Shown: positions 18,251 through 61,446 of the stretch, one piece after another
How positions within the stretch are numbered: the first letter of the stretch is position 1
Layout of the letters: each line of letters begins with the position of its first letter
The notes under the pieces: generated by a model
What the model was told of the DNA's origin: nothing
The model's database searches: none
What the model saw: only the letters and a program-made list of their open reading frames with translations
Translations under genes and position numbers: made by a program
DNA from: an uncultured Clostridia bacterium
Lineage (GTDB): Bacteria > Bacillota > Clostridia > Christensenellales > Borkfalkiaceae
Assembly (NCBI GenBank): GCA_964447305.1
Contig: CAYURN010000007.1
Span: forward strand, 15,423 to 79,422
DNA length: 64,000 nt
Direction: 5' to 3'

Positions 18251-18279
18251 TTGACAAGAACATGAAATTATGGTATAAT
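18251..18279 (+). promoter_or_regulatory. consensus promoter TTGACA-17-TATAAT upstream of citrate synthase
   Basis: TTGACA at 18251-18256 and TATAAT at 18274-18279, with a TGG just upstream of the -10 box. Confidence 0.6.
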
Positions 18280-18359
18280 TATCCAAATATACATTATGTG
18301 CTTTTAGGCGTTGTCGCAGTTGACGCGCTGATAAAAAATATTAACGGAAGTGATTTGAT

Positions 18360-19730: not shown

Positions 19731-19770
19731 CGCCGCGCAACAGATTATTGTAAACGAACGGCAAAAGCCG

Positions 19771-19810
19771 AGGAGCCGCATTGCAGATTGCAATCTGCAA
19801 TGCGGCTCCT
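19771..19810. terminator. long hairpin between convergent genes
   Basis: AGGAGCCGCATTGCAGATTG / CAATCTGCAATGCGGCTCCT, a near-perfect 40-nt palindrome. Confidence 0.7.
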
Positions 19811-19830
19811 TAAATTTCTGCGACAGGAGG

Positions 19831-20634
19831 CTACTGCTCATCCGGAAAGTCGGGAGCGAGCGAACTTTTAAAACGCCGCTTTATGCCGCCATATTCAAAC
19901 GCAAGCTCATAAGCACATAACTGCTGCCGCTTTATGCCGTATTTTTTATTCAGAACTTCATCGCCGTACTTTTCGTCGCCGAGGACAGGACAGCCGATAT
20001 GAGCCATGTGAGCGCGTATCTGATGGGTTTTGCCCGTATGCAGGGTGACATTGACCTTTGCAAGGCCGCCCCGCCTTTCGATTACTTTATACTCCGTGCG
20101 GATGGGCGCGCAGCCCTTTGCGGGGACGTCCGATATTCTGACGACGCCGCGAACTTCGTCCTTGGCTAGGTACGCCGTCATATCGGCGGAGTCGGCGCGG
20201 AAATTGTCCCTGCATATACACACATATCGCTTGGTCACGCGCCGTTCCCTGAAAAGCGTTTCGAGGGCTTGGGCAGTGCGGTCGTCGGCGGCGAACAATA
20301 TCGCGCCACAGGTGTTCCTGTCCAGACGATGAACGGGAATGAGTCCTGTTTCAGAAGCCAGCGCCTCGGTGGAAACGCCGCTGAACTTATCGGCGACGTA
20401 GATAAATTCGTCCGCATATATGGTTGAATGACTGGGTTTTGACTCCATTTTCTGCGTTGTATAATATGTCACCTCGTCGCCCGCGTTCAGGGCGGTATTG
20501 GAGCGAACCTTTGTCCCGTTCACGCGGATGTCGCCCGAACGCAACAGGGCAGAATAATAAAAACTGCCCTGGGGATAGACGGCGTCGGTAAAATCTTTGA
20601 GGTTTGAGGACTGTTTGACGATAAATTTTTTCAT
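19831..20634 (-). CDS. RluA family pseudouridine synthase with N-terminal S4-like domain (267 aa)
   Basis: Catalytic motif HRLDRNTCG and S4-like segment LLRSGDIRVNGTKV. True start is the ATG at 20632-20634 (MKKFIVKQ), which overlaps the feoB stop (ATGA). The 356-aa ORF-track version runs into feoB. Confidence 0.8.
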   Translation of the reverse strand: MKKFIVKQSSNLKDFTDAVYPQGSFYYSALLRSGDIRVNGTKVRSNTALNAGDEVTYYTTQKMESKPSHSTIYADEFIYVADKFSGVSTEALASETGLIPVHRLDRNTCGAILFAADDRTAQALETLFRERRVTKRYVCICRDNFRADSADMTAYLAKDEVRGVVRISDVPAKGCAPIRTEYKVIERRGGLAKVNVTLHTGKTHQIRAHMAHIGCPVLGDEKYGDEVLNKKYGIKRQQLCAYELAFEYGGIKRRFKSSLAPDFPDEQ

Positions 20635-25311: not shown

Positions 25312-27090
25312 TTACTTATCCGATTTCAGGGCGTTGGACGCGGTATGTGCCGCAACGTATTGCCTTGTAAAATCTATTATCGTAGTCTTGAGTTCAGGGG
25401 AAACGGCAGCGCCCTTGCGTATTTCGCTGACGATTTCGGGATGCGCGTCGTCAAAGCTGTCCATAAGCTGCTCTGCCATGCCGGGTATGGCCTCCGGCGC
25501 GACGCCCGAAAAGGCGTGGCCGGTTGCGGCTATGAGCAGGAACACCTGCCTGTGTTCGGGCAGAGGACTGTACTGCGGCTGACGGAGGAGCATCATGAGG
25601 CTTCTGCCGTAGTCGAGCATCTTTTGAGTATTTTCATCGAGGTCGGAGGCAAACTGCATAAACACCTCCATCTCGCGGTACTGCGCAAGGTTGAGCCTGA
25701 CGGTACCCGCGGCCGATTTCATGGCCTTTGTCTGGGCGTCGCCGCCGACGCGGGATACCGAGATACCGACATTGACCGCGGGGCGCTGACCTGAATAGAA
25801 CAGATCGCTTGAAAGGAATATCTGCCCGTCGGTAATGGAAATTATGTTGGTGGGGATATATGCCGAGATGTCGCCCGCCTGAGTTTCGACTACGGGCAAG
25901 GCTGTCATACTGCCGCCGCCGCGCTCGTCGGAGAGGTGTGCGGCGCGTTCGAGAAGGCGCGAATGGAGATAGAATACGTCGCCGGGATAGGCTTCGCGGC
26001 CCGGTGATCTGCCCAACAGCAGGCTGAGCGAACGGTATGCGACGGCATGCTTTGAAAGGTCGTCATAGATGATGAGCACGTCCCTGCCGCTGTTCATGAA
26101 AAATTCGCCTATGGCGCAGCCCGAATAGGGGGCAATATATTGCAGCGAAGCCGCGTCGCCCGCCGTTGCGGACACGACGACGGTGTATTCCATGGCGCCG
26201 CGCCTTTTGAGATTTTCGACGAGGTGGGCAACCGAACTTGCCTTCTGGCCTATGGCCACATATATGCAGATGACGTTCTGACCCTTTTGGTTGAGAATGG
26301 TATCCGTAGCGATGGCCGTTTTGCCCGTCTGGCGGTCGCCGATAATCAGTTCACGCTGGCCGCGGCCGATGGGGAACATACTGTCGATAGAAAGTATGCC
26401 TGTTTTGAGCGGGGTATTGACGGGCTGGCGGTCTATTATGGAAGGTGCGGGCGATTCTATGGGCATATAGGCCTGAACATCTATGGGGCCGCCGCCGTCC
26501 ACGGGAGAGCCGAGGGCGTCGACTACCCTGCCGAGCATGCCTTTGCCGACAGGTACGCCGGCCGTTTTGCCGGTGCGGTAGACAGAAGTGCCTGACTCCA
26601 CCTCCCTGTCGTTGCCGAAGAGAATACAGCCGACGCGGTCGGGAGCAAGCTCCTGAACCATTCCGCGGAGACCGCACTCAAACTGGACTATTTCGCCGTA
26701 CTCTACCCTGTCGAGGCCGCTGACTTTGGCAATGCCGTCGCCGACGGAGAGAACTTTGCCCGCCTCGCGGGCGCCCGTGGGCATTGCCCAACTGTCTACC
26801 GTTTCGCGAAGGCTGTCTACGGCCTGGCGGAGCATTGTGGTTACGCCCGACGTGCTGTTTTTGATATCTTCCTTGAGTTTGTTTATGCGGCTCTGTGCCG
26901 ACCAATCGTACACGTTGTCGCCAAATTCAAGGCGGAAACCGCCGACTATGGCGGGGTCTTTGATAACTTCTATTTCAGGGCGGACGCCGTAAGTGCGTTC
27001 AAGAAATTTGCCGAAGCCTTCAAGCTGACGCTTGTCGGGGGGAGTAACGCAATACAGGCGGGCCACCGATTTTTTTGATTTAGCTGCCAA
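25312..27090 (-). CDS. atpA: F1 ATP synthase alpha subunit with an in-frame ~86-aa delta(OSCP)-like N-terminal extension
   Basis: 592 aa, compared with roughly 500 aa for a usual alpha. The alpha core begins near MLRQAVDSL...[16 protein letters not shown] and carries Walker A GDRQTGKT. The upstream 86 aa contain the delta C-terminal signature [28 protein letters not shown]. The start is a TTG at 27088-27090 preceded by AGAGGT. Confidence 0.85.
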
Positions 27091-27772
27091 TGTTGTTTAC
27101 CTCTTTAAGGAACTCGTCGTAAATGGCCTTGTTTGAAACTTCACCTTTTTCTATTATGGCGCTCTCTGCTGCGCCGCCGATGACATCGGCCATTTCCGCC
27201 CTGTCAAGCACGGGTCTGGCGGCCTCGCGGCTGAGTTTTTCCGCAACAAAGCGCATAGCGGCGCGCGAACGTTCCGACACGCCCTCCTGCTTATCCGAAA
27301 GACTGAGATATGCGTCATAGAGCGCGCTGTCCGTACGGGCGTTGCTTTCCATGGCAAGCAGTTTTTCGGCCGAGCGGAGAATGAGCGTTACCATCTCGTC
27401 GCTTGCCTCTGCCATATATTGCGAACGTTCCAATTCGGCTTGATGGCGGCTGCTCACGATTATTTTACCGGCCTCTGACTCGGCGGCTGCAATGATACGC
27501 TTTTTGGTGTTTTCGGCCATGGCCGCGGCCTGCTTTTCGCGCTCGGCGAGTTCGGAATCGAGCATGGATATTTTTACCTGACGCTCCTTTTCCAGAACTT
27601 CGGTTTCGCCGACTGTGCGAGTGTAGTCGTCTGCGGCCTTTTTATACTTTTCGGCGCGGGCATCCATGAATTTTTTTACGGGTTTGAACAACAAAAACGT
27701 AAGGCCTGCCGCAAGTATTATAAAGTTGAAGAGATGCAGCAGTATCTGCTGCCAATCTATGTTAAGTGGCAT
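27080..27772 (-). CDS. atpF: Fo ATP synthase b subunit, elongated (230 aa)
   Basis: One N-terminal TM helix ([20 protein letters not shown]) is followed by a long charged helix. It is ~65 aa longer than a usual b subunit. Start chosen at the second ATG (27772) after GAGGA; the ORF track begins at 27784. Confidence 0.8.
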
Positions 27773-27816
27773 AATATTCCTCATTGAACCGCGCTATACC
27801 GAGCGCGGCACGGATA

Positions 27817-46821: not shown

Positions 46822-49212
46822 TTATTTATTTTTTGAAGATTTTTTTGCTTTCTTTTTTTCCTCTACTTCGACGGCGATGGCGTCGATATCGCCCTTATCC
46901 TTGGGTTTGACAACAAGCAGGACTATGAAGGCTATAAAGAATACGCCCGCAACACAGAACAGAACTATTGCCGCGATGTTGTTTTCAAGCCAATCGTCCT
47001 CGCCGTAGATTTCGGCGGCACGCGCCGAGGCACGCACTACAAGGAAGCTGTCAGTCACCTGGTTTGATAGCCCCGTATCGGTCAAGGTGAGCCGCACGAC
47101 ATAAAATTCAGACGCGTCCTGAGGGACAAAGGTTACGTTGGAAGAACTCCACTCATAATCTTCAAACTCCTCGTCGTCGGTGACGAGAGTGAAATATTTT
47201 CTTGTGTTTTCGTATTCGTTGCCGTCGTCATCGACATATTCGTTGAAGAAGAGCGCATACGCATTATTTACTACGTCGTCGTAGGAAAGTTCCACGCCGG
47301 TATCGACATAGAAGGAGTCACGGTCGAAGATATAGAGATTGTAGACGGCCGAATATGTGCCGGATACGCCTGTTATATCAAACGACGCGCTGTTGTAAGT
47401 TGAGCCGACATAGCCGACGGACTGCACGCCGGGGTCTTCGACGGTGGCCGCCCTGTATTCGACATAAATTTCAAAGAAGGGAAGCAGTTCGGCGTAATCT
47501 TCATCCCAGATGTCGTCGGTGGAGATGGTCTGAATATTGCCGTCTTCATCGGGATAATACATCTCGTTGCCGGCCGCATCGGTAACATAGATGGTAAAGC
47601 GGTAGTATGTGTTGGCTTCGGAGATGGAGATTGCAAGGGAATCGGAACTAAGACCCGTGACAGAGCCTGTGGAGCTTGTTGTATAATAGATACTGTAAGT
47701 GAGGTCGGTGTAGCCGCCGAGATTATCTATTACATAGCCTGAGAAGTCGGGAAGATAGAGGTTTGTATCCGAACTTGCGAAAAGACCGTCGGGATATATA
47801 TTTTCATCGGCGATATACGCATCTATCTTTGCCTGATACTCCTCCTGCACCTTTGCGATATATTCCTTGTATGTTTCGAGGTCGACAACGCTTTCATCGG
47901 CATAGGTTGCGCCGAGGTTGTCTTCGAGCATCATTATGAACGTGCTGCTTGCAGTTGACTCCGTATCGTCTTTAAGGTCGCTGATATCAACCTTATACTC
48001 TTCGGGAACATACCAATCCATAAATACATAGTCGGTCTGAGCCCTTGACGAGGTGGTGTCCCTGACATATATGCAGACCTTGACCAGACCATAGACGGTG
48101 TAACCGTTTTCGTTTTCGACTATGCCGTTAACCTCGTCGAGGTCGGGAACATAGGTATATTGGTCGCGGAGAAGGCGATAGTCGGAAGAAGTGCTGACTT
48201 CCATGAACAAGTCGCTGTCGTCCGAGTAGTCGTTATAGTCATAGTCCTCGGCTTCGAACTGTTCGTTGCTGAGAACGTAATACATGACGGTGCTTCTCGG
48301 TGAAGACGCAATTACGTCGATTACGGTATATTCAATATCTACAGCGTCGCCATAGGTGAGGTAGTTGAGGCCTGAATCGAGGCATATAACGGGAGCCTGG
48401 TCATCGCGGATGGTGCCGCCCGTGAGAACGCCGTCATCGTCATAAGCTGCGTCGTAGACCTGGAAGCTCTGGCCGTTGAGCGAGTACATTATGAGGTTGA
48501 CGGAGGCGTCTTCATCAGAGTCATCAAAGTCGACCGTAAAGGTTAAGGGTGTGGCAGCCGAATCGCCCGAAGAAACGTAAGACGCGTAATTTTCGCTGAC
48601 GTTTACGAACAGACCCGCCTCCTCGCCGTTGATGAGAATGGTGTAATCGCCGCTTTCAAAATCACCGAAAGCTATGGTTATGGACGAATAATCTTCGAGC
48701 ACGACGGAAGGTTCATCTTCATCGTCCACGTCGTCGCTTTCAGAGATGTAGAGCGCGAGAGTGCCTTCCGAAGTGGGTTTGAACACGAGATAGTTATCCG
48801 AAACGCCGTTATCGGTTATATTGTACTGCTGAGATTGGAATGCAATGGTATAGCTTGAAAATTCTATACTGTCGAAACCGATGACCATTTTGAACTTTCC
48901 GTTTACGCCATAGCCGTTATCGTCAGCGGACCACCAATTATAGGCGAGGTTTTTTCTGTAAGTGACTGACTGTCCGTCGCTCATAAGAAAGGCGGTATAG
49001 TCGGTGTAGCCCTCGTCAGAATCGTCAGCGATGCGCACGGTGGCGATGGACGCGCTGTCGGTGCCGGTACCTGTGTAGAATACGTTTGTACCCGTCAGGG
49101 TTATTTCCCTGTAATCGTCATCGGCGGCGGCAACGGCCGCGAAAGACATTGCTGACGCCGCAACTGCGCATACTGCGGAGAGGGCAATTAGTGATAATCT
49201 GATTTTCTTCAT
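46822..49212 (-). CDS. large acidic secreted protein with C-terminal membrane anchor (796 aa)
   Basis: Signal peptide MKKIRLSLIALSAVCAVAASAMSFA, then a very D/E/Y/T-rich beta-type sequence. It ends in a single C-terminal TM helix (IAAIVLFCVAGVFFIAFIVLLVV) and a Lys-rich tail. No family recognised. Confidence 0.6.
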   Translation of the reverse strand: MKKIRLSLIALSAVCAVAASAMSFAAVAAADDDYREITLTGTNVFYTGTGTDSASIATVRIADDSDEGYTDYTAFLMSDGQSVTYRKNLAYNWWSADDNGYGVNGKFKMVIGFDSIEFSSYTIAFQSQQYNITDNGVSDNYLVFKPTSEGTLALYISESDDVDDEDEPSVVLEDYSSITIAFGDFESGDYTILINGEEAGLFVNVSENYASYVSSGDSAATPLTFTVDFDDSDEDASVNLIMYSLNGQSFQVYDAAYDDDGVLTGGTIRDDQAPVICLDSGLNYLTYGDAVDIEYTVIDVIASSPRSTVMYYVLSNEQFEAEDYDYNDYSDDSDLFMEVSTSSDYRLLRDQYTYVPDLDEVNGIVENENGYTVYGLVKVCIYVRDTTSSRAQTDYVFMDWYVPEEYKVDISDLKDDTESTASSTFIMMLEDNLGATYADESVVDLETYKEYIAKVQEEYQAKIDAYIADENIYPDGLFASSDTNLYLPDFSGYVIDNLGGYTDLTYSIYYTTSSTGSVTGLSSDSLAISISEANTYYRFTIYVTDAAGNEMYYPDEDGNIQTISTDDIWDEDYAELLPFFEIYVEYRAATVEDPGVQSVGYVGSTYNSASFDITGVSGTYSAVYNLYIFDRDSFYVDTGVELSYDDVVNNAYALFFNEYVDDDGNEYENTRKYFTLVTDDEEFEDYEWSSSNVTFVPQDASEFYVVRLTLTDTGLSNQVTDSFLVVRASARAAEIYGEDDWLENNIAAIVLFCVAGVFFIAFIVLLVVKPKDKGDIDAIAVEVEEKKKAKKSSKNK

Positions 49213-51059: not shown

Positions 51060-51094
51060 GCTGAAAGGGCGGCGCGGCAGCCGCCGCGCCGCCC
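51060..51094 (-). terminator. strong GC hairpin ending the phage-like operon
   Basis: 12-bp stem GGGCGGCGCGGC / GCCGCGCCGCCC (51067-51094) with a 4-nt loop, followed on the minus strand by CTTTCAGCGTTT. It lies 5 nt after the 165-aa ORF stop. Confidence 0.65.
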
Positions 51095-51098
51095 CCGT

Positions 51099-51596
51099 TC
51101 AGGACGTAAACGTAGAAAGATAGTTGTAAAGAGTTGTATAGTAGTTGCCGAGGTAACTTTGGGCGACGGTGTCGGCCGCGTACAGCGCCAGACGCTCGGC
51201 GGGGTCCTCTATGGCGAGATAGAAATCCCTGACCTGAATGTAGCGTTCGAGGTAGCTGAGTTCGTAGTCGACTATATAGCCGGAAGAGTCGTTGCCGCTG
51301 TCGCCCGTTTCTCCGTCGTTCGTCGGCTCGTTGAGGGACATGTTGAATATGAGCTGTTCGCGCAGTATCTCCACTTCATATTCATACTCCGCCTCCAACT
51401 CAGCCTTCTTGTCGGCATACAGCGATGAGAGATGGACGTTGTTGGTGTTGCACAGACAGTAATAGACCTGAAGCTCCTGCTGAAGAGTGTGATACAGCTC
51501 GTTCTTGTTCTGCTGGGCGGTGCGCAGCAACTTGAGCTGAATGGTTGTAAGAGCTTCGGCTTCGGCCGCGCTGATATCGATTATGTCAAAATCCAT
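51099..51596 (-). CDS. phage-cluster hypothetical protein (165 aa)
   Basis: Last ORF of the cluster, 5 nt after the preceding stop. It is helical and acidic, with no family recognised. Confidence 0.5.
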   Translation of the reverse strand: MDFDIIDISAAEAEALTTIQLKLLRTAQQNKNELYHTLQQELQVYYCLCNTNNVHLSSLYADKKAELEAEYEYEVEILREQLIFNMSLNEPTNDGETGDSGNDSSGYIVDYELSYLERYIQVRDFYLAIEDPAERLALYAADTVAQSYLGNYYTTLYNYLSTFTS

Positions 51597-51601
51597 AAAC
51601 T

Positions 51602-52855
51602 CTACACCTCCGCTTTGGCCGTAAGGGCGCGCAGTCTGCCCTGCGCCGTGACCGTGAACGTGAACGACGTGCCGTACATATCGACCCTATGCACGCCGCT
51701 GTCAGTAAATGTGCGGGTGACGCCGAGCGAGCTTACTCGCACGGTAACGTCGCCGTCGCAGACGACGTTTATCTCCCTGAGAAGAGCGCGGCTGCCGCCG
51801 AACGTGACGGGCTGCGTGTAAAGCTGTATGCTGCCGCCGCCGAATACCAGCTTTATGATTATAGTACCCGTCACGGCGTACAGCCCGTCAGGCCCGGCGA
51901 ACAATGCGCGCGGAGTTATGGTAGTCTTCCACCCCGTTCCCGCCGACAGGTCAAAGCAGTACATTACATCTGAACCGACATCTTCCTCGGTACACACAAG
52001 GCAATACATATCGCCGAGCGCGGCGGCAAACTGCGGCGAGGAAAGACCTTCATCGGCAAAGTTTATAAGCCTGTCAACATCGGAACCGTCGAAGGCGTAG
52101 ATACCGTTCTGAGTGCAGAAAATTATCTTTCCGCCGCTCTCCGCGCAGGTGCGCTCGACTATGCCGTCGGCCGTAAGGCAGTTGGCCGTGGCGTCCACCT
52201 TGTAATTCTGTGGATCGCCATAGGCGCGTATGACGGTTATGCCGCGTTCGCGCACGGCTATCAGGCGGTCGTCGTAGCTGAACAGCCTGAGGATGCTGCC
52301 GCCCTCGACGGGCAGATAGGTGTAGCCGCTGCCGTAGATACCCTCCTCCCAATCGAGCGCGTGCGAGGCCGACCACCACAGTTTTAAGCCGTCTGTGTAG
52401 TCGCGGGCGAAGAATCTGCCGCAATGCACTGCGCCCGTATAGAACTGCTTTGTATCCGTGCTGCTATCCTGCGCAAGACCCGTATAGATGATTCGGTTGT
52501 AGCCGTTGCAGAATACCGTTACGGCATAGCCGTTGAAGTACATGTCGGTAAAGAAGGGCGAATCCGCGAGCGAAGTGGCTATGGCTGTATATGAACTGCC
52601 GCCCGCATTTATGCGGTAGGCCGCCGAGGACGTCAGCACATACAGCGCGCCGTTGCCCTGAGAATAGTAGGCATCGCTTACACCTGATGGCAATGTGGGA
52701 AAGGTGCTTTGCAACGTGAACGATGTGCCGGGGAGCAGACAGTCATCTACAGTGCGGGCGTTGATACTGTAATCCAGACATTCTTCCGAAAGCAGGTCCA
52801 CCGTTTGCGAAGAAGTGCTGTACAGCGAGGTAGCAGACCTTAGACGCGTTCTCAC
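51602..52855 (-). CDS. phage-cluster structural protein candidate (417 aa), beta-rich
   Basis: Start reassigned to the GTG at 52853-52855, which is preceded by GAGGAGG and overlaps the upstream stop (GTGA). The ORF-track start at 52939 would overlap the upstream gene by 88 nt. Repetitive beta-type segments are present (GIYAFDGSD, GLYAVTGT). Confidence 0.55.
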   Translation of the reverse strand: MRTRLRSATSLYSTSSQTVDLLSEECLDYSINARTVDDCLLPGTSFTLQSTFPTLPSGVSDAYYSQGNGALYVLTSSAAYRINAGGSSYTAIATSLADSPFFTDMYFNGYAVTVFCNGYNRIIYTGLAQDSSTDTKQFYTGAVHCGRFFARDYTDGLKLWWSASHALDWEEGIYGSGYTYLPVEGGSILRLFSYDDRLIAVRERGITVIRAYGDPQNYKVDATANCLTADGIVERTCAESGGKIIFCTQNGIYAFDGSDVDRLINFADEGLSSPQFAAALGDMYCLVCTEEDVGSDVMYCFDLSAGTGWKTTITPRALFAGPDGLYAVTGTIIIKLVFGGGSIQLYTQPVTFGGSRALLREINVVCDGDVTVRVSSLGVTRTFTDSGVHRVDMYGTSFTFTVTAQGRLRALTAKAEV

Positions 52856-53412
52856 AGCCACCTCCTCGGCGGGATGCGCCCGCCGGGCGGCAGCTGCGAA
52901 AGCTGCCTGTCTATTTCGGCGCGGTACCTGCTCTCCCACATTCCGGCGCTGTCCACGTCGCCGGCTATCAGCATGTATTCCGCGGCCACCCCGCAGGCGA
53001 CGAGGCTTGTTCCGACCGCGGGGTCGGGATAGGAAAACTCGTCGGTCAGGGTCAGCGCGTCAGGCACATACTCGTATTCGACGCATATCTCTTTCAGCGG
53101 GCAGATGAGTTTGGAGGGTGAATACGTCCACCCCGCCTTTTTGCCGCCGCCCGTCACGCGGAGTATGCGGTAGGGAGTGTAATCGAACGAAGAGAAGTCG
53201 TATTCGCCGTCCTCGGAAGAAAGGGTCTGAACATATCTGAGCGGGAAGTAGCCGCGGGCAAGTTCGTCGGTGACGGCGTTAAGGCACAGCAGAAGGGCGC
53301 TCTGCATACGGCTGATTTCAGTAGTGAGCGACGAGGAACCCTCCGCACTATCGGCGGCGTCAGGGCGGCCTATCATGCGCATCACATCTGCCAAAAATTG
53401 TTTTACTTGCAT
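52852..53412 (-). CDS. phage-cluster hypothetical protein (186 aa), head-completion/adaptor candidate by position
   Basis: First ORF after the capsid gene. The call is positional inference only. Confidence 0.45.
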   Translation of the reverse strand: MQVKQFLADVMRMIGRPDAADSAEGSSSLTTEISRMQSALLLCLNAVTDELARGYFPLRYVQTLSSEDGEYDFSSFDYTPYRILRVTGGGKKAGWTYSPSKLICPLKEICVEYEYVPDALTLTDEFSYPDPAVGTSLVACGVAAEYMLIAGDVDSAGMWESRYRAEIDRQLSQLPPGGRIPPRRWL

Positions 53413-53490
53413 AGTTCCTCCTTTGAAAGGGCGCCCCGCCCGCGGGCGGGGCGCCCCTCCTGAAACAATAAATTAAAGGCGGAGCAGGCT

Positions 53491-54642
53491 TCAGCTCAGC
53501 TGAATCATGCCCTGGGCATAGGGCTTTTTGCAGATGAGTTCGGCATACTTGACGAGAGTGGCCGTGTATGCGGCCTTGCCAGAAACGCGGGTGAGTATTC
53601 TGCCGCCGTCGTCCTCAAGCCATTCCCAATCGCAGAGCTGGCAGAGCACAAAGTCGTCAGGATTGAGAAGGTAGATTCTGTCACCGGGGCAGAACCTGTC
53701 GGCATAGACGGGTACGTCGTTGACGTAGACCGCGGTATATCCCGCAGTTACTTCGGGCGTGCTGATTACGCGCATGTCCTTGAACAGTGAAGCGATCTTG
53801 TTGCGGACGGAGTGCGAACACAATATCATCCCCACCTTGCCGCCGCTGCGCTCTTCGATAGTTTCTATGGCGCCTATAATATCCTCGTCCGTGAGAGATG
53901 ACGTTGCCGCAACGTAGGGGTTGAAAAAATCCTCGTCATCCTTGGAATGGCCGTAGACGGTGGCGCCGTCGAAGATGGCCGAAAGACCCGTTAGCTCCTT
54001 GCCGTAGGAGTTCGTGACGACTACAGGATAGCCCACATACGTCGAATGGTTGGATACGGCGGGCGTAACGGTGATGGTGTTGGTTGAAGAATCGACGGCA
54101 GTTATCTTGAGGCCGGACACGGCCGCGGAAGTGCCGTCGGCGCTTGCGATATCGACAACCATGCCCTTGTACCAGCCCTTGACAGACGTGAGAGTGAATG
54201 ACGTGGTGCTGTTGGCCGAGCTTATGTAGGCGAGCAGGCCGTTTCCGTCGCCGAACAGCATACGCGAAAAGTTTGACTTTGCGTCGGCGATGAGCCCTTC
54301 CATTTCGGCGTTGAGAAGATTGACGAACGCCCCTGAAGAATCCTGCGAGGCGCGTATCGCCTTGTCGGTGAGAGATATCGTGCCGTATATGTTCTTTAAA
54401 GGCATGGTCACGTCGTAATAGGTGTTGCCCGACGCGTCGGGAAGGTTGCCGTCCTCGTCGCATGTGACCACGCGCGACATGTCGCCCTTGATGAGCGCGC
54501 ACTTGGCATTCTTGCCGTAGACATATCTTGTACTCTTTTCAATTGCGCTGAGAAAGGGCGAAACGCCCTCGTTGAGCTGTTGGGTGACGGCGTCGAGGTA
54601 ATAATCCTTCAACGCGGCGTCGGCATTCTGTAATGTAATCAA
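53491..54642 (-). CDS. phage major capsid protein (383 aa)
   Basis: It follows the scaffold gene. Size and sequence style are typical of HK97-fold capsid proteins (C-terminal ...YLLNPDDFVLCQLCDWEWLEDDGGRIL...YAELICKKPYAQGMIQL). The subfamily cannot be resolved by eye. Confidence 0.7.
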   Translation of the reverse strand: MITLQNADAALKDYYLDAVTQQLNEGVSPFLSAIEKSTRYVYGKNAKCALIKGDMSRVVTCDEDGNLPDASGNTYYDVTMPLKNIYGTISLTDKAIRASQDSSGAFVNLLNAEMEGLIADAKSNFSRMLFGDGNGLLAYISSANSTTSFTLTSVKGWYKGMVVDIASADGTSAAVSGLKITAVDSSTNTITVTPAVSNHSTYVGYPVVVTNSYGKELTGLSAIFDGATVYGHSKDDEDFFNPYVAATSSLTDEDIIGAIETIEERSGGKVGMILCSHSVRNKIASLFKDMRVISTPEVTAGYTAVYVNDVPVYADRFCPGDRIYLLNPDDFVLCQLCDWEWLEDDGGRILTRVSGKAAYTATLVKYAELICKKPYAQGMIQLS

Positions 54643-54645
54643 AGT

Positions 54646-55089
54646 TTATCTCCTTTTATTTAAAAATTGTTGCGCGAGAGCGCCCGCTTCGCTTATAGTC
54701 GCGGGCGTCTTGCGCCGTGCGGGGACGTTGACCCCGCCTGTGATGAGGGGTACGCTCCTGTTTGCCGCAACAGACGCGAGGTATTCGGCGATTATTCTGT
54801 CGCGGACGGCCTCATCCGTCTGCGCCGCGGCCGCGGGCGCACTGTTTTGCTCTGCCTGCGGGGGAAGGCCGCCGCTTGCCGCCTGAGCGGGCGGGACCTC
54901 CTTTTCCGCTTTTTCCAACTCCCTCAGGCGCTGGCTGCGTCGGGTAAACTCGGCCTCGAGGTTGTTGTAGGCTTCGAGCAGGGCATCCACGTCCTTGAAT
55001 TTTCCCAGCCCTGTCGCAGGCTGTTCTCTGTTGTCTTCCGCCTCCGCGGGGGCTGCCGTGGCCGGTACTTTGGTTGTGGTGTTATCCAT
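54646..55089 (-). CDS. phage scaffolding protein (147 aa)
   Basis: Lies between the portal and capsid genes. It is low-complexity, A/P/E-rich and helical, with KFKDVDALLEAYNNLEAEFTRRSQRLRELE. It overlaps the portal stop by 8 nt. Confidence 0.6.
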   Translation of the reverse strand: MDNTTTKVPATAAPAEAEDNREQPATGLGKFKDVDALLEAYNNLEAEFTRRSQRLRELEKAEKEVPPAQAASGGLPPQAEQNSAPAAAAQTDEAVRDRIIAEYLASVAANRSVPLITGGVNVPARRKTPATISEAGALAQQFLNKRR

Positions 55090-56929
55090 TCTTTTCCTCC
55101 TTTAAAAGTTTTTTATGTTCCGCGAGGTGCCTTACAAAGACTTCCTCGGTTGCGGACGAAAGCTGATTGCTGAGAATAAACGCCGTATGTTCGGCAATGT
55201 GCAGGGCGTGGTCGTCATACGCCTTTGCCTGCACAAAGCCTTTGAGCAGGGCGGCGTTTTCTTCGGCGCAGCGCGTGCGGTGAAGTTCCTCCATATTTCT
55301 GCCCGCCGACAGACCGTTGTAGCCGAGATAAGTAAGAACTTTGTTCTTTACCCCCTCCGATATCCTTCCGTCATCGCCCGTGAGCAGGCCGCTGGAGAGC
55401 AGGTCGTACATAACCGCCCTGCGCTGGGCCGGCGTGAGGTTGATTTCGCTGTCGGCTTCGAGCACGACGTCTTCCGAGTTGATTTGTTCCGAAGTAAAGG
55501 TTATAAGCCCTGCGCCGACGTCCCTGCGGGCGCCGCGCATGACGCGCATATCGGGCGTGAATTGGCGGTAGAGGCGAAGCACCTGCCTGCCGATTGACCT
55601 TAGCGCGCTCTTTATCTGTTCATAGGATACGTTCAGGCGGGCTTCATCCTGCTCGATGAGCAGTTGCAGACCCGTGGCCGACGTGACCGAATTCAACGTG
55701 CCGGTAGTCTGCGTGATTTCACCCACGCCCGACACCTTTGCAAATTCTTCTACAAGCCTGTCCTCTTCCTCGGAAAATTCGGACGGGACGGAGCCGAGCG
55801 AGAGCATTGTGGGCGGAGTGCCGCCCTGGCGGTAGATGAGTACTTTGCCGGGCGTAAGGCCGTCGGCCATAAGCTCGTCCGTATCGACGGAGCCGTCCTC
55901 CACGGCGATTGTACCCATAGATATTCTGTTTAAAAATTCGTGCTTGCGGTTTTTGACGGCGTTGTATGCGCGCTGAACGGGAATGAGCCTGTCGACAACG
56001 CTGCCGCCGAAGAACGAGCCTGCAAGAGGCAGGCTGTTCTGCCTGACGAAGGGATATGTGCGCGAGCCGTCCTCGCCGTTGATATAGGGCAGGTCGCCGT
56101 CGAACAGCAGGGCGTCCCCCGCCACTATTGTCAGTCTGCCTTCGGGGCGGTCGGCGGTGGGGCGCTCATAGCGTTCGATGACAATTTCGTAGCCGTGCCT
56201 GACCGCCGTGACGGGGGCAATGCGGGTGACCGAATGTACGGACGCCGAATATGGCGAGAGGGAAAATTCGTCTATGTCCCTGCCGACGAGTTTTACGCCG
56301 TAGGCGGCGTAGATATCCTCCACGGCTGCCGCCCTGGCGTGAATAAGGCTGGGCTGGCCGTGCAAACTCTCCTCCGAAAGCGAGGCGGGATAAAGTTCAA
56401 ACGGGGACACGGGGGAAATTTTAACCCCGCCCTCCCTGAGTTCGCCGTCCTCGCCTTCGGCAAGACGGCTGCCCGCGCAGCTGTCCCACGACACCTTGTA
56501 GAAGGCGGTGCCGCACGTTTCAGACCAGACGGTGGCGCGCGTAATGCAGTCGTCGAGGTTCTGGCTCTCCGACACGGCGGCAAGCACGGCGGAAGATATG
56601 TGCGCCGAGCGCACGTCGTCATCGCCGTCGGTGGCAGGCAGCACGGCAAGTTTGGGACGTATGCGCGCGAGCTTTGCACAGCGCATATCTATGGTCGGAG
56701 CGATATAGTTGAACACGCGGCGGGTCTGCCAGAAGAAGCCGGGAGAGTCCTCCTCTATCTCGCCATAGGAGTTTACGTCGCAGTACTGATTGCCGCACAA
56801 AAAATTCATGTTGAGCTGCCAGCCGCGCTCGATAGTGCGTCTTTCCTCCTGACGGCGGGCAAAATCTGCCCTGACGTCCTCCACCAGCTGTTTGGCCGCC
56901 TTTTCGGCGGCAGTTGCTTTGTCAATCAA
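55082..56929 (-). CDS. phage portal protein (615 aa)
   Basis: Size and position fit (after TerL, before scaffold). The N-terminal segment WQLNMNFLCGNQY is typical of portal families. Confidence 0.7.
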   Translation of the reverse strand: MIDKATAAEKAAKQLVEDVRADFARRQEERRTIERGWQLNMNFLCGNQYCDVNSYGEIEEDSPGFFWQTRRVFNYIAPTIDMRCAKLARIRPKLAVLPATDGDDDVRSAHISSAVLAAVSESQNLDDCITRATVWSETCGTAFYKVSWDSCAGSRLAEGEDGELREGGVKISPVSPFELYPASLSEESLHGQPSLIHARAAAVEDIYAAYGVKLVGRDIDEFSLSPYSASVHSVTRIAPVTAVRHGYEIVIERYERPTADRPEGRLTIVAGDALLFDGDLPYINGEDGSRTYPFVRQNSLPLAGSFFGGSVVDRLIPVQRAYNAVKNRKHEFLNRISMGTIAVEDGSVDTDELMADGLTPGKVLIYRQGGTPPTMLSLGSVPSEFSEEEDRLVEEFAKVSGVGEITQTTGTLNSVTSATGLQLLIEQDEARLNVSYEQIKSALRSIGRQVLRLYRQFTPDMRVMRGARRDVGAGLITFTSEQINSEDVVLEADSEINLTPAQRRAVMYDLLSSGLLTGDDGRISEGVKNKVLTYLGYNGLSAGRNMEELHRTRCAEENAALLKGFVQAKAYDDHALHIAEHTAFILSNQLSSATEEVFVRHLAEHKKLLKEEKNG

Positions 56930-57194
56930 AGTTTTCCTCCTTTAACATTTTTAATAGTTTCTGCCGCTCGGCGGCAAGCTCTTCATCCGACAGACTGTCG
57001 TCGCACGGCCTGTCGTCGAGCAGCATTTTGACAGCCTTTATGTCGGGCGGGATATCCCGACGGGTGACTTTACGCTTGACGAGTCTGAGTTCGCCGTCCT
57101 GCACGGCGAATTCTTCCACCGTTTCGCTGGTGTCGAACCCGACGGCGCACTTTTTGAGCGCCTCCTGCAAATCCGTATCGTTCTTGCTTTCCAT
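56922..57194 (-). CDS. small phage protein (90 aa) resembling the C-terminal part of small terminase subunits
   Basis: The segment EALKKCAVGFDTSETVEEF..DGELRLVKRKVTRRDIPPDIKAVKMLL matches by eye a pattern recurrent in Firmicutes phage TerS C-termini. There is no HTH part. It overlaps the portal start by 8 nt. Confidence 0.35.
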   Translation of the reverse strand: MESKNDTDLQEALKKCAVGFDTSETVEEFAVQDGELRLVKRKVTRRDIPPDIKAVKMLLDDRPCDDSLSDEELAAERQKLLKMLKEENFD

Positions 57195-57230
57195 TATTCC
57201 TCCTTATGATTACTCTGCATATAAACACAT

Positions 57231-58670
57231 TCAAAGCGGGCGCCTGCGCTCGTTGCGGAGCCGCCGTATGCGCCGCGCCTTGTCGCCCGCCACGGGGGAA
57301 GCAGGGCGGTGTTCGGCGGGGCGCGGGCGGGACATTATGTAATAGCGAAGCTCGTCCATGCAGTGGTCGTCCACCTTTCTGGGACTGTCCCCCGCCGCCC
57401 ATGAATAGGTGAGAAACTCCTCTATCATGTTGGTGCAGGTATCGAAAATATAAATATCCGGCCTGCCGTTGTTCCGCCTGAGGTATTTTTTGACGCGGCA
57501 TATTCCAGCGCATACGTCCTTATTGACGTTGGTATTTACGAGTATGCCGTTGTCGCAGAACAGTTCGGCCACGCTGCGCGAAGCCGCAAGCGTGCGCTGG
57601 TTCGCCGCCGAGTCGATAAGAGCGGCATACCTGCCCTTGCTGTCGCTTTTCCACCCGATTGCCCCGCTGATATGCTTGATTGAATTTGCATGGAAGTCGA
57701 CATCCCTACCCGCGGCGAAATGTTCGGCGACGACGTAGACGTTGCCGTCCCAATCGACGGCATACCAATGCGCAGACAGAGGGTTGTTGAGTCCCGGATC
57801 TATAGAGATGGTATCCTGCCATTCGGGAGGCACGGGAAAGGGCGCAATGACATGGACGGCGGGGTCGAATTCGGGATAGACAAGCCCCTCCCCCGAAGAG
57901 AATTTGCCATAACGGCGGCTGTCGAGGGTGTGCTCGTCAAGGGCGGTTTCTAAAAGCTTTATCTCCTTTGGGGAAAGAAAGGGGTTGTCCTCCCAACTCA
58001 TGAACTGGCACCAGATTTCCGGGTTGTTCCTGCGGTTGAGGTATATTTCATTGTAGATAAAGGTCATGCCCTTGAGCGGAGTCATCGTGCCGAAGATATC
58101 CCCCTGCCTGTCCATGACGCGCATTATGCACTCCTCGTAGATGTCCTTGGGAGGTTCTTCGTCAAACCACACGAAGTCAAGCGAACTGCCCTGAAATTTT
58201 TCGCGGCCCTGGTCGCAGCTTTTGAAGCCTATAGTAGATATCCCGCCGAACACGTTCTTTATCTTGATCTGGTCTATCACGCCGCCCGCGGGGCTGTCCT
58301 TGCGGCCGGAGAGCATTGTTATTTCGGCTATCCATTCCCGCGGGAGATAGTAGAGTATTTTGCTCTGCGCCACGTCGCGCTGGACCTGCTGGGAGAGGGA
58401 AACGACCCAGCCGAACACGTCCTTTCTGTTCTTGCGCCACGGGTGATTGCCGCGCGCCAGCCAGATCGCCTCCACTGCGCCGCACTCCGTTTTGCCCGAA
58501 CGATTGCCGCCGAATACCCAGCGGTTGCGCTTTTTGCAGCGGTGAAAGGCCAGCTGCTTTTTGTGTTTTTTGCGGCCGACGTTGTAGGCGAGCAACTTGT
58601 TTTCTCTGTTGCGGGCGGCAATGATTGCGTCTATGCGCGCCAATCTTTGGATTATTTCCTGCTTAGTCAT
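57231..58670 (-). CDS. phage terminase large subunit
   Basis: Walker A GGNRSGKT and Walker B LDFVWFDEE. The RNaseH-like nuclease Asp motifs are SIDPG, LIDSAA and DDHCMDELRYY. The start is uncertain: ATG at 58670 or GTG at 58694. Confidence 0.85.
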   Translation of the reverse strand: MTKQEIIQRLARIDAIIAARNRENKLLAYNVGRKKHKKQLAFHRCKKRNRWVFGGNRSGKTECGAVEAIWLARGNHPWRKNRKDVFGWVVSLSQQVQRDVAQSKILYYLPREWIAEITMLSGRKDSPAGGVIDQIKIKNVFGGISTIGFKSCDQGREKFQGSSLDFVWFDEEPPKDIYEECIMRVMDRQGDIFGTMTPLKGMTFIYNEIYLNRRNNPEIWCQFMSWEDNPFLSPKEIKLLETALDEHTLDSRRYGKFSSGEGLVYPEFDPAVHVIAPFPVPPEWQDTISIDPGLNNPLSAHWYAVDWDGNVYVVAEHFAAGRDVDFHANSIKHISGAIGWKSDSKGRYAALIDSAANQRTLAASRSVAELFCDNGILVNTNVNKDVCAGICRVKKYLRRNNGRPDIYIFDTCTNMIEEFLTYSWAAGDSPRKVDDHCMDELRYYIMSRPRPAEHRPASPVAGDKARRIRRLRNERRRPL

Positions 58671-58730
58671 GTATATTACGACAAATCCTCCCACATTTCT
58701 GCCCGCAAAGCATTATATAATGTGCGGGAT

Positions 58731-59393
58731 ATGAAGAAATTATTATTTATAATAATCTGCACGGCGGCACTGCTGCTCTGCGGCGGGGGTCGGGCGGCGG
58801 AAGCTTCCGAACTGACCTACACCTACGCCCAGGCGATAACGACGACGGCGTATTTCTTCAGTCAGAAGGACTTGTCCACCTCACTGTTTGCCGTGCCGTA
58901 CACCTATTACGTGCGCATAGTGCGCGAGGACGGGCAATGGTACTACGTTCAGTATGCCGCCGACGAAGGCATATACCGCGCGCTGTTCGGCTATGTGCTC
59001 AAGAGCGACTTTGTAACCCTGGACGAAGCGCCCGAAACGACCTATCTGTTCAAGAGCCTGACGATAACTTACACCGCCGAAGGCGACAATTCCTCGCTGC
59101 CCGCCCTTGACGAAATAGAGATGCAGGCCGCGTTTTACGGCACATACTATTCGGGCGCGACCGCGTATTCGTATGTGCTGTGCGGCGATTCGTTCGGGTA
59201 TATTCTTGGGGCAAACGACGATTATACGCTGAACGAGATATATACCCCGGCAGAGGATACATATATTGAAGATGATAGCGGCGGCGCAAGCGACAGCGGC
59301 GGCAACATAGTGACGGCCGTGATAATAATCGCGCTGACGCTGGGAGCGATAATGCTTGTATTCCTGTCCTCCAAGAAGATAAAGACCGACTGA
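58731..59393 (+). CDS. secreted/tail-anchored protein with SH3b-like repeats (220 aa), opposite strand inside the phage cluster
   Basis: True start is ATG 58731 (MKKLLFIIICTAALLL); the ORF-track start at 58443 lies antisense within terL. SH3b-like segments are ...DGQWYYVQYAADEGIYRALFGYVLKSDF and ...YVLCGDSFGYILGAND. A C-terminal TM helix is followed by KKIKTD. Confidence 0.6.
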   Translation: MKKLLFIIICTAALLLCGGGRAAEASELTYTYAQAITTTAYFFSQKDLSTSLFAVPYTYYVRIVREDGQWYYVQYAADEGIYRALFGYVLKSDFVTLDEAPETTYLFKSLTITYTAEGDNSSLPALDEIEMQAAFYGTYYSGATAYSYVLCGDSFGYILGANDDYTLNEIYTPAEDTYIEDDSGGASDSGGNIVTAVIIIALTLGAIMLVFLSSKKIKTD

Positions 59394-59394
59394 G

Positions 59395-59796
59395 TTACCT
59401 GCCCGTGAGCGCAAAATATTCGGACACAAGCCTGACGGCCGCGGAATAACTGCCTATGTTCCAAGCCCTGCGCATAAAGCGCACCACTACCCTGCGGACG
59501 ACGTTCGCGCGGTCGCGCGGCAGGCGGGAATAACCGCCCTTGCCGAGGGCGTAGCCTTGCAGAATTGCCCTGTCCTCCACGCAGAAGCCCGACATGACGC
59601 CGTCGAGATAACCCCACAGTTCGGCGAGTTTTCCCTTGACTTCCACGAGCATGCACAACCTTTCGGCATAATACATGGCAGGCCGACCGCCCAAAGCCGA
59701 TGAACACGCCGAACGCAGTATTAAATTGTCCAAAGCGTCGTTTAATCTGTCGGCGCGAAAATAAAATTTGAGCAGTTTTTTGCTTGTGATTGCCAT
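59395..59796 (-). CDS. putative phage late-gene regulator (ArpU/RinA/sigma region-4-like, 133 aa)
   Basis: Start set at ATG 59796 (MAITSKK), preceded by GGAGG with a 5-nt spacer. The position upstream of the packaging genes and the ...VEDRAILQGYALGKGGYSRL... segment suggest a sigma-r4-like HTH. This is a weak call. Confidence 0.35.
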   Translation of the reverse strand: MAITSKKLLKFYFRADRLNDALDNLILRSACSSALGGRPAMYYAERLCMLVEVKGKLAELWGYLDGVMSGFCVEDRAILQGYALGKGGYSRLPRDRANVVRRVVVRFMRRAWNIGSYSAAVRLVSEYFALTGR

Positions 59797-59871
59797 TGGT
59801 TCCTCCGCCATGTCGTTCAACGCGCACGTTGAACATGCGAACATTTGTTTGCATGTTTATTATAAAACACT

Positions 59872-59895
59872 AAATATGACAAAAAGTTCATATTT
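59872..59895. promoter_or_regulatory. perfect 8-8-8 inverted repeat, candidate operator
   Basis: AAATATGA (59872-59879), 8-nt spacer, TCATATTT (59888-59895). It lies in the divergent region upstream of the putative regulator and is followed by the AT palindrome AAAAATATTTTT. Confidence 0.4.
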
Positions 59896-59967
59896 AAAAA
59901 ATATTTTTAATTTTATTTAAAAAAAACATGTGATATATTTGTTTAAGCACACACAGGCGGTAGGTGA

Positions 59968-60000
59968 AATTGCCCCGCAGCCTTGCGGTGCGGGGCAATT
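59968..60000 (+). terminator. orphan hairpin (terminator-like) in the intergenic region
   Basis: 11-bp stem AATTGCCCCGC / GCGGGGCAATT followed by CATTATGTTTT. There is no upstream plus-strand gene. Confidence 0.35.
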
Positions 60001-60072: not shown

Positions 60073-61446
60073 GTGAAAAAATTTATTGCGGCAACAACGG
60101 CGCTTTTGCTTACTATTTTTATAGCGCCCGCATATCTTTTTACGACAGAAAACGCCAACGGCGACGACTCTGTTGAGATATATCCTACTCAATTTATCAG
60201 CGAGCTGACATTTGACAATCTGGTCGACTACGCGTTCAACGGCGACGTAAAGGCGTTTGCCGAAAACACGTCTTCGGGCGCTGTGCTTTATATTTTGGAG
60301 CCCGACTCGTATGGCGACAATCAGTTGACGACGGTAGTATGCGAATTTCAGATATCCGACATTGAGTATGACGACGATATTCTCTATCTGCTAACTGCCG
60401 ACAACGCAATCTATTCCTACGAAAACGGAAGCTTTACCTCCGCCATTCATTTCTTTGACTCCGACATACAAGCAAGCGACTATATTTCAATTTCAGGTTA
60501 TCTGTATATATTCCCCGAAGCATCCAGCGGAGCCGGCCTCGGGTTGATGGTCTATTACAACAGCGCTTTCACAGATATTTTTATCGATAACTGCTCACAG
60601 ATTAAACAAATCGGCAGCACCTTATATGTTGTCAATGACGGTAAACTTTATTCAATCTATGAAGCTACGGCAACAGAGCTGTCTTTCAGCTATATCGACC
60701 TGACCATTGCAGACAACATTTCCTCAGGCAACGCCGCTGAAATTTTAAAAAGCGACGGCTATGAAGTGAGGATGGTGAACGTGCTTTCGCGGACAACGGA
60801 CGGCGGTGCGACATACATTACGGAGATAGATATATCCGAAATAGGCAGCACGTTTACGACATTGGGAACGACGAGGCTCAACACGTCCCGCACGGGACTT
60901 GCCATTGCCGATGTAGGCAACGCGACAATAGTTATAATGCCCGACGACGACGGCGAAGGGAGCTGCTTTATCACCCTGACCTCCGCAATAGAGGAAATAA
61001 GCTACACGCCGACGGAAAGCAGCTCGGAAGCTTACGCCACAGGCGACACGGCTATATATTCGCGGCCATACGCCAGCAACTCCACCTTCATTATGACCGT
61101 ACCCAGCGGCACGATGTTCACCACAATCCAGCAGATTGAAATTGATTTTATAGACGACGTATTTTACATGGTCACCTGTACGGTAGACGGACAGGAGATA
61201 CAGGGCTATGTGATAAGCCGCTCGCTTTCGGAATACACCTTTGCCGCCGACAACAGCGAACAGTTTACGACCGGCACGGAGGACTTCACATACGAGAACA
61301 ATGCGAGCACGGTAATAATTATATTGATAATAGTCCTGCTTGTGCTGATTGCCATAGGATATATAGTGTTCTATGTAACAGGCAAAAAGCGCAGCGATAA
61401 GTCGGACATACCTCCGCCCGACGACGATTTGTATATTAAATGGTAA
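60073..61446 (+). CDS. secreted/tail-anchored protein with C-terminal SH3b-like domain (457 aa)
   Basis: GTG start and an N-terminal hydrophobic signal or anchor. SH3b-like segment ...FYMVTCTVDGQEIQGYVISRSLSEY, then a TM helix (VIIILIIVLLVLIAIGYIVFYV) and a charged tail. The architecture parallels the 58731-59393 protein. Confidence 0.6.
   Translation: MKKFIAATTALLLTIFIAPAYLFTTENANGDDSVEIYPTQFISELTFDNLVDYAFNGDVKAFAENTSSGAVLYILEPDSYGDNQLTTVVCEFQISDIEYDDDILYLLTADNAIYSYENGSFTSAIHFFDSDIQASDYISISGYLYIFPEASSGAGLGLMVYYNSAFTDIFIDNCSQIKQIGSTLYVVNDGKLYSIYEATATELSFSYIDLTIADNISSGNAAEILKSDGYEVRMVNVLSRTTDGGATYITEIDISEIGSTFTTLGTTRLNTSRTGLAIADVGNATIVIMPDDDGEGSCFITLTSAIEEISYTPTESSSEAYATGDTAIYSRPYASNSTFIMTVPSGTMFTTIQQIEIDFIDDVFYMVTCTVDGQEIQGYVISRSLSEYTFAADNSEQFTTGTEDFTYENNASTVIIILIIVLLVLIAIGYIVFYVTGKKRSDKSDIPPPDDDLYIKW

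Follow-up and report, generated by a model that had tools for sequence, protein, structure and literature searches.

A phage-derived head, packaging and tail-base operon conserved in Christensenellales gut bacteria, probably encoding particles of the gene transfer agent type

Results

An operon of phage-type genes within housekeeping DNA

This study concerns a 64-kb stretch of DNA from a member of the Borkfalkiaceae (Christensenellales), hereafter the window, to which all coordinates refer, and within it an operon of phage-type head, packaging and tail-base genes. Eight intact, tightly coupled open reading frames (ORFs) occupy positions 51099-58694 of the minus strand amid housekeeping genes and encode, in this order, the large terminase TerL, the small-terminase-like (TerS-like) protein p90, a portal, a scaffold, a capsid protein, an adaptor, a hub/nozzle and p165 (Table 1). 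Neighbouring ORFs overlap by 8 nt at 56922/56929 and at 55082/55089 and by 4 nt at 52852-52855, and the remaining junctions are gaps of 3-78 nt as judged from ORF coordinates. A first-pass annotation of the window had reported eight undisrupted minus-strand ORFs with these same overlaps, and had placed a strong G+C hairpin with a 12-bp stem (51067-51094) at the end of the operon. Both were found to be real, the stem of the hairpin being slightly longer (Table 1). This probable terminator was absent from a simple consensus terminator scan because its T-tract is weak.

Family searches confirmed that the operon is set in housekeeping DNA. The window was found to encode RecO, Era, YbeY, PhoH, YqfD, a sigma factor, citrate synthase, FeoB, ATP synthase, IleRS, TsaD, RF2, SecA, adenine deaminase, GyrA/B and RluA, as well as an rRNA methyltransferase, malic enzyme and CysK. 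The sole tRNA, a tRNA-Ala at 5191, lies 46 kb from the operon, an Rfam scan of the window returned nothing besides tRNA, and att-like direct repeats were not found around the operon, in line with the earlier observation that flanking tRNAs and direct repeats are missing. Integrase, repressor, replication, fibre and lysis genes were likewise not found, neither in the 64 kb nor just past the window ends, where the search for a fibre or lysis locus met ordinary genes only.

Table 1. Features of the operon and its upstream companion genes in the window; dN/dS was computed for the window against four relatives (dS ~1).
Feature	Position	Strand	Basis or description	dN/dS
Terminal hairpin, probable terminator	51066-51095	-	G+C-rich 13-bp stem, dG -36.4 kcal/mol, z -4.1 against shuffles	
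p165, 165 aa	51099-51596	-	Coiled-coil hairpin, acidic disordered linker, small helical C-terminal domain (AlphaFold2)	0.07-0.15
Tail hub/nozzle (P22 gp10, SU10 nozzle, T7 gp12 fold), 417 aa	51602-52855	-	AlphaFold2 and Foldseek	0.23-0.34
Head-to-tail adaptor, SU10 type, 186 aa	52852-53412	-	PF24175 SU10_adaptor in family members	0.18-0.24
Major capsid protein, podovirus type, 383 aa	53491-54642	-	NCBIfam NF033394 capsid_maj_Podo 7.6e-60 (above cutoff)	0.09-0.26
Scaffolding protein, 147 aa	54646-55089	-	Position between portal and capsid genes, Ala/Glu-rich composition	0.33-0.41
Portal, P22/SU10 type, 615 aa	55082-56929	-	PF16510 (P22_portal) 3.8e-14, PF23899 (SU10_portal) 3.3e-8, phrog_156 2e-31	0.12-0.21
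p90, short TerS-like protein, 90 aa	56922-57194	-	Weak small-terminase PHROG matches	0.04-0.12
TerL, packaging ATPase and nuclease	57231-58694 (probable ATG start 58670)	-	PF03237 2.5e-14, phrog_2 9e-31	0.09-0.11
tm316, 220 aa	58731-59393	+	Signal peptide, SH3b-like extracellular region, C-terminal anchor (start codon and sequence)	
p149, small helical protein, ~130 aa from conserved start	59395-59796 (mechanical ORF to 59844)	-	Putative regulator	
tm457, secreted, C-terminally membrane-anchored	60073-61446	+	N-terminal signal/transmembrane and C-terminal transmembrane segment	0.28-0.30
Flanking housekeeping genes				0.05-0.16

Packaging and head proteins

The ATPase and nuclease motifs that had been read from TerL at first sight turned out to be invariant in 49 species, namely Walker A (GGNRSGKT), Walker B (LDfVWfDEE) and the nuclease motifs ISIDPG and DHcMDELRY, and 194 of the 487 residues of the protein do not vary at all in this set. 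The adjacent p90 had been described as a TerS-like fragment. Weak matches of its family to small-terminase PHROGs (phrog_309 in 9/34 members, phrog_23444 in 7/34) are consistent with the first part of this description, but p90 is not a fragment: its homologues are 60-108 aa long, conserved and strongly constrained, and the core 'LVKRKVTRRDIPPDIKAVKMLLD' is nearly invariant. Neither a Pfam nor a helix-turn-helix (HTH) match was obtained for p90, which therefore has no recognisable DNA-binding domain.

In addition to the podovirus-type model listed in Table 1, the capsid protein matched phrog_14242 (4e-44) and, slightly below the cutoff, PF17236 SU10_MCP (4.4e-5), and no N4-type model matched it at E <= 0.1. 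Its homologues, mostly on long chromosomal contigs, number >4300 at 90% clustering, and at 50% clustering there were 3402 clusters. The ORF assigned to the scaffold is conserved in all loci compared and had zero family matches in Pfam or PHROG. In some loci the scaffold and capsid genes appeared to be fused in frame, which was rejected as an artefact of ORF extension, as a stop codon lies between the two genes.

Adaptor, nozzle and p165

PF24175 (SU10_adaptor) was matched by 15/37 members of the 186-aa family, with a best E of 3.6e-6 and with the copy in the window itself below significance, and the same domain is given in the precomputed annotation of homologues. For the 417-aa protein, whose start was preferred over the mechanical ORF (to 52939) because homologues are 408-426 aa long, sequence searches gave weak beta-propeller signals only, and its identity as a nozzle came from fold prediction alone. 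The AlphaFold2 model (pLDDT 90, pTM 0.87) has a beta-propeller and a C-terminal beta-sandwich, and in a Foldseek search of the PDB each of the 14 best matches was a chain from the tail or portal-tail complex of a podovirus. Among them were Pa223 (9nwi_Y, E 2.4e-16), Pan3 (9vyg_M, 3e-14), the P22 gp10-gp26 entry (8eap_D, 2e-12) and SU10 (7z4b_DW, 3e-11); the list, which spans E 2e-16 to 1e-8, also has Sf6, VP1, GP4, Pam1 and PhiM1, with T7 lower down. The model of p165 (pLDDT 84, pTM 0.50), in which the helical hairpin is long, found no significant Foldseek match in the PDB or BFVD, and the sequence gave neither a family match nor a PDB sequence match. From its gene position alone, which is that of P22 gp26, p165 may be a tail plug or needle-like protein. 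Profile searches against solved structures returned nothing significant for the 186-, 417-, 165-, 90- and 149-aa families or for tm316.

With an adaptor and a hub/nozzle encoded, the operon specifies a head and the proximal part of a short tail. This amends the first-pass annotation, in which lysis, replication and integration genes had correctly been called missing and tail genes wrongly so. Its further proposal of a minimal podovirus-type particle, with the last three proteins as adaptor, nozzle and accessory protein, gains support from the SU10_adaptor matches and the nozzle fold, and p165 keeps the label 'accessory' and nothing more specific.

Companion genes upstream of TerL

Three genes upstream of TerL, coding for a large secreted anchored protein (457 aa in the window), a small protein and an SH3b-like anchored protein, have the same order and orientation even in deeply diverged lineages and were seen at matching positions in eleven loci of this study (L110, L119, L129, L130, L132, L144, L146, L152, L159, L162 and L165). 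In the window these genes are tm457, p149 and tm316, and all three may belong to the system. The first, tm457, is opposite in direction to the operon, is kept at the same place in Borkfalkiaceae loci and has no Pfam match; in other lineages a protein of 790-920 aa takes its position, and the C-terminal half of tm457 is weakly homologous to these large proteins in L146, L162, L119 and L130. The gene for p149 lies on the operon strand, is conserved in Borkfalkiaceae loci and has a homologue in the gene found upstream in distant lineages (hhalign 95%, E 2e-8). Within this family L127 alone gave sub-threshold matches to Sigma70_r4_2, DUF1492 and Phage_antitermQ in Pfam scans, and p149 had no match among solved structures, so that a role as operon regulator, possibly through a sigma-region-4/HTH-like domain, is weakly supported. 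Finally, tm316 is divergent from TerL across a 60-nt intergenic region and adjoins it in Borkfalkiaceae and distant lineages alike, with a weak SH3_3 signal in 7/32 members (best E 0.004). Of the small late regulator and SH3b-like membrane proteins that had been proposed for this side of the operon, the former thus stays putative, and the SH3b-like character can be traced, weakly, in at least one protein, tm316.

In the window, a TATAAT box lies between the arms of the inverted repeat CCCGCA...TGCGGG in the region that separates tm316 from TerL (58671-58730), and comparison of the window with L001, L018, L021, L023, L024, L029, L030, L058 and L082 showed a conserved ATTATA just past the tm316 start codon and TTTTGTC...AAAGGTC just before the TerL start codon. 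In addition, the AT-rich region from which tm457 and p149 diverge contains a G+C hairpin, GCCCCGCAGCCTTGCGGTGCGGGGC, at 59970-60000, which had no Rfam match.

A further surface protein, p796 (46822-49212, minus strand), is acidic, secreted and 796 aa long, and has a signal peptide and a C-terminal membrane anchor but no Pfam match. Many loci of the Borkfalkiaceae conserve it just past RluA (30-78% identity; dN/dS 0.12-0.15), and it is absent from a subclade. A mirror-tree test of tm457 or p796 against the operon in 19 species gave partial correlations of 0.57-0.73, a modest excess over the gyrB control (0.26-0.50).

Conservation, selection and inheritance in the Borkfalkiaceae

One genome per GTDB species was scanned, and 137 genome stretches were found to encode a relative of the capsid protein. 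Eighty of these loci were fetched, from Candidatus Coproplasma, Candidatus Borkfalkiaceae and metagenome-assembled genomes (MAGs) labelled 'Christensenella/Christensenellaceae', and synteny could be judged in 75, the other five being short contigs that end within or just past the operon. The same block, comprising tm457, p149, tm316, the eight operon genes, the methyltransferase and RluA, was present in 75/75 informative loci, and loci cut by contig ends keep the same order in whatever part of the block is reached. Protein identity to the window was 71-87% for TerL (loci with the whole gene), close to the 68-92% of RluA and the 72-91% of gyrB.

The dN/dS values of the operon genes span 0.04-0.41 (Table 1), those of TerL being like those of gyrB and RluA, and relaxed selection with a dN/dS near 1 was not seen. 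Distances between operons track those between flanking genes (Mantel r 0.76, p 0.001). Comparison of the loci therefore shows that the operon is intact, under purifying selection and inherited vertically, in agreement with the initial view that the undamaged module has a retained function and is not a decaying prophage.

Downstream of the operon by a few kb, one Borkfalkiaceae species (L001-L003, ~18100-21100) has a gene for a 960-970-aa pectate-lyase-fold protein after that of an 805-aa surface protein; the lyase-fold gene is not conserved there in other loci. Beta-helix lyases also act as phage tailspikes.

Distribution across the Christensenellales and distance from phages

A metagenome scan with more distant capsid proteins found the operon in other lineages, with 42-48% identity of the capsid protein and 49-69% of TerL (57-69% where the contig holds the whole gene). 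The nozzle is homologous in all of these lineages (hhalign 97.6-99.6%), and the last operon gene has no detectable homology in the most distant of them, yet its product is again rich in coiled coil. The contigs reach 299 kb, and the neighbouring housekeeping genes differ each time (IspG/RimP/NusA, GyrB/GyrA, ValRS/RNase J, and a probable phosphoglucomutase recognised by eye). Exact-sequence look-ups led to Candidatus Borkfalkia ceftriaxoniphila, on a 1.93-Mb contig, B. excrementigallinarum, Gallimonas intestinigallinarum and Fimimonas gallinarum, and the named taxa returned by a representative search and by cluster look-ups belong to the Christensenellales only. Fimimonas is placed in the GTDB family CAG-314 and Coproplasma in the Borkfalkiaceae, both within the Christensenellales and with genomes of 1.4-1.9 Mb (PMC8035907), and these small genomes nevertheless retain the operon block. 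On these comparisons the operon is conserved across the Christensenellales, in at least two GTDB families.

Relatives among phages were distant. Capsid identity to isolated phages was at most 28%, and 2.9 million viral contigs gave just 7 matches, all weak or short. One GenBank entry, DAO85956.1 ('Caudoviricetes sp.'), shares a 90%-identity cluster with the chromosomal capsid protein of L146 and is found on 207 contigs of up to 630 kb, which indicates that virus-prediction pipelines label the domesticated operon as a virus.

Other observations in the window

The ATP synthase operon (25312-27784, minus strand) has an unusual layout. Its alpha-subunit ORF starts with an in-frame C-terminal part of delta (OSCP), and the b-subunit ORF, at 234 aa, runs well beyond the b domain and overlaps the delta-alpha ORF by 11 nt. 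From this layout the delta gene looks to be split or fused (b-delta and delta-alpha), or to be frameshifted.

Discussion

A domesticated operon for probable particles of the gene transfer agent type

The operon is best read as the part of a domesticated, short-tailed P22/SU10-like phage that codes for head, packaging and proximal tail, and it most likely builds particles of the gene transfer agent (GTA) type, a reading that I consider probable. A GTA-like domesticated particle had been among the initial suggestions; the results support it, and it is compatible with a minimal podovirus-type particle. Hallmarks of GTAs are present at the locus: phage-derived structural and packaging genes are chromosomal and are not accompanied by genes for replication, integration or lysogeny control, and they are inherited vertically under purifying selection across a host clade. 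I infer that the particles would package host DNA. Published data on DNA in particles give circumstantial support. GTA-type packaging, with reads of 4-7 kb, was reported for 'Christensenellaceae' MAGs, for which the genes were not named (PMC12946183), and Borkfalkiaceae DNA was consistently enriched in fractions of virus-like particles (VLPs) from mice, where it made up ~13% of the transductome (bioRxiv 10.64898/2026.07.08.737213).

A sequence of events can be proposed for such a particle. Expression might be turned on by p149, the putative regulator, upon which the scaffold and the capsid protein would, going by their family assignments, build a procapsid on the portal. TerL together with the TerS-like p90 would load the head by headful-type packaging, in which the small subunit would be non-specific, and the DNA would probably be that of the host, taken without sequence preference as in RcGTA and in FpGTA, the GTA of Faecalibacterium prausnitzii. 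The SU10-type adaptor and the gp10-type hub would then close the portal channel, for which the coiled-coil p165 may provide a plug. Receptor-binding fibres and lysis would come from elsewhere in the genome, as from operon II of FpGTA, or would not be used.

Several points weigh against this reading. Nearly all data come from MAGs, the operon is known from its genes alone, and the published VLP enrichment is circumstantial, naming taxa and not loci. The weak PHROG matches leave the TerS identity of p90 weak, the same holds for the regulator role of p149, which depends on sub-threshold matches in one distant homologue, and p165 is without any match in sequence or structure. One lineage (L114, L121, L137, L139, L147 and L148) keeps p90, portal, scaffold, capsid, adaptor and nozzle genes, and TerL was not detected beside p90; its place is taken by lipoprotein-like genes in L114 and by opposite-strand genes in L139, and two extra genes (382-428 and 299-339 aa) follow the nozzle gene in this lineage. 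Lastly, fibre, receptor-binding, ejection, holin and endolysin genes were not found near the operon in any lineage, with flanks of up to 10 kb searched on each side, which leaves particle exit and DNA delivery unexplained.

Alternative explanations

This last absence, of fibre, ejection and lysis genes beside the operon in every lineage, also speaks for a domesticated, DNA-filled capsid with a closed tail stub whose benefit is something other than gene transfer between cells, possibly the release of extracellular DNA in protected form, the decoying of related phages, or some role connected with tm316 and tm457. Strong selection on the operon and the co-inheritance of two anchored surface proteins and a small regulator across deep divergence fit such a capsid as well. 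However, the fibre and lysis genes of FpGTA sit 125 kb away in a second locus, and their absence near the present operon is therefore expected of a GTA; the rate covariation of tm457 and p796 with the operon is not clearly above the gyrB control, and positive support for any of the alternative functions was not obtained. I regard this explanation as unlikely.

The surface proteins are given a larger part in a variant that I hold to be distinctly improbable. It posits an ancient, order-wide domestication independent of FpGTA, in which the one locus encodes both partners of an exchange system: a fibre-less, podovirus-like DNA capsule of head, adaptor, nozzle and plug, and membrane-anchored SH3b-like surface proteins that capture or dock the capsule on sister cells, in place of the receptor-binding proteins of a phage. 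The fast-evolving, co-inherited tm316 and tm457, or the 800-900-aa counterparts of the latter, may be these proteins.

A satellite phage that makes heads itself but relies on a helper phage for induction, tails and lysis, another of the initial suggestions, would account for a module made up of head, packaging and connector genes only. It was rejected as very unlikely, given that integrase, replication and interference genes and att repeats were not found at the locus, that in dozens of species the operon keeps one chromosomal position and diverges in step with its flanks, and that the adaptor and hub form the base of a podovirus tail and not a connector for the long tail of a helper. HK97-type capsid proteins have been reused as protein-cargo nanocompartments of the encapsulin kind elsewhere, and a cargo-carrying capsid compartment had likewise been suggested here. 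With the terminase ATPase-nuclease conserved and portal, adaptor and nozzle kept, all of them parts that serve DNA packaging and retention, and with no cargo gene evident, this is extremely improbable and was dropped. An inert prophage remnant would fit with most phage functions being missing, but that it stayed intact by chance can practically be discounted at a dS of ~1 between species, with eight intact ORFs at dN/dS 0.04-0.41, invariant TerL catalytic motifs and a block conserved across at least two GTDB families. A complete P22/SU10-like prophage was also considered and rejected: portal, adaptor and nozzle are present, but tailspike or fibre, ejection, lysis, integrase and repressor genes and att sites were not found in the window.

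Significance

GTAs have long been known almost solely from Alphaproteobacteria, and a podovirus-like GTA in gut Firmicutes, FpGTA, was first described in 2026. The operon is a concrete gene candidate for the unexplained particle-borne DNA of the Christensenellales, and makes this question directly testable. It is conserved like a core gene set in gut bacteria with small genomes, in at least two families, and one of its carriers, Candidatus Borkfalkia ceftriaxoniphila, has been reported to bloom to dominance after ceftriaxone. If active, the operon would be a major means by which genes flow within a gut lineage that is abundant and for the most part uncultured, and would provide a second case for asking whether podovirus-type GTAs arose once or repeatedly.

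Comparison with known systems

A literature search found no paper describing this operon, and it was therefore set against four kinds of known system. With P22/SU10-like podoviruses it shares portal, adaptor and hub/nozzle proteins of the same families or folds, and its gene order of portal, scaffold, coat, gp4-like, gp10-like and one further gene follows that of P22, whose late (morphogenetic) operon it matches as far as the gp26 position, the order of TerL and TerS excepted. Unlike these phages, it comes without tailspike or fibre, ejection, lysis, immunity, integration and replication genes and occupies a vertically inherited host locus. Capsid-forming phage-inducible chromosomal islands (cf-PICIs) resemble it in having their own capsid and packaging genes and an incomplete virion, but they are mobile and helper-dependent, carry integrase and replication genes and att sites, and dock onto the long tails of helpers, none of which was seen here.

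RcGTA and the other alphaproteobacterial GTAs (viriforms) are alike in being domesticated phage structural genes that are inherited by the host under purifying selection. RcGTA has accessory loci elsewhere in the genome, and its small terminase is without DNA-binding specificity. It differs in being siphovirus-like, with a long tail encoded in the main cluster, in the phylum of its host, and in having no detectable sequence relationship to the present operon.

FpGTA (Borodovich et al., Nat Commun 2026; PMC12946183) packs 8.4-8.9 kb of host DNA into particles of 40 nm. Its operon I spans 10.5 kb and, besides TerL, portal, capsid and adaptor, encodes a TerS that lacks a DNA-binding domain and a nozzle matched to PDB 8eap, and its operon II, 125 kb away, encodes a fibre, a receptor-binding protein, a holin and an endolysin (PMC12946183). 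Compared by the annotation labels in the supplement of that paper (PMC12946183) and not by sequence alignment, the two systems differ in several respects. The capsid protein of FpGTA is annotated as N4-gp56 family and that of the window matches NF033394 capsid_maj_Podo; a Prp-like protein is found there and a scaffold here; and TerS lies upstream of TerL there, and between TerL and the portal here. In view of these three differences the operon was not filed as an orthologue of FpGTA. The hosts belong to different orders, Oscillospirales there and Christensenellales here, and FpGTA has experimental particles and its second operon, of which no counterpart was found in the window, just past its ends or in the fetched flanks.

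In architecture the two are otherwise alike. Both operons are chromosomal, hold 8-10 genes without replication or integration genes, and encode TerL, portal, capsid and adaptor as well as a nozzle of the P22 gp10 kind, with both nozzles leading to 8eap. The small terminase of FpGTA has as its counterpart here the TerS-like p90, in which a DNA-binding domain was not recognised either. Each has a protein of coiled-coil type at or beside the distal end, which in FpGTA is annotated 'TolA' and is abundant in particles, and each is widely conserved in a lineage of gut Clostridia. On this analysis the architecture of the Christensenellales operon is closest to operon I of FpGTA, and it appears to belong with the gene transfer agents and to call for no new category.

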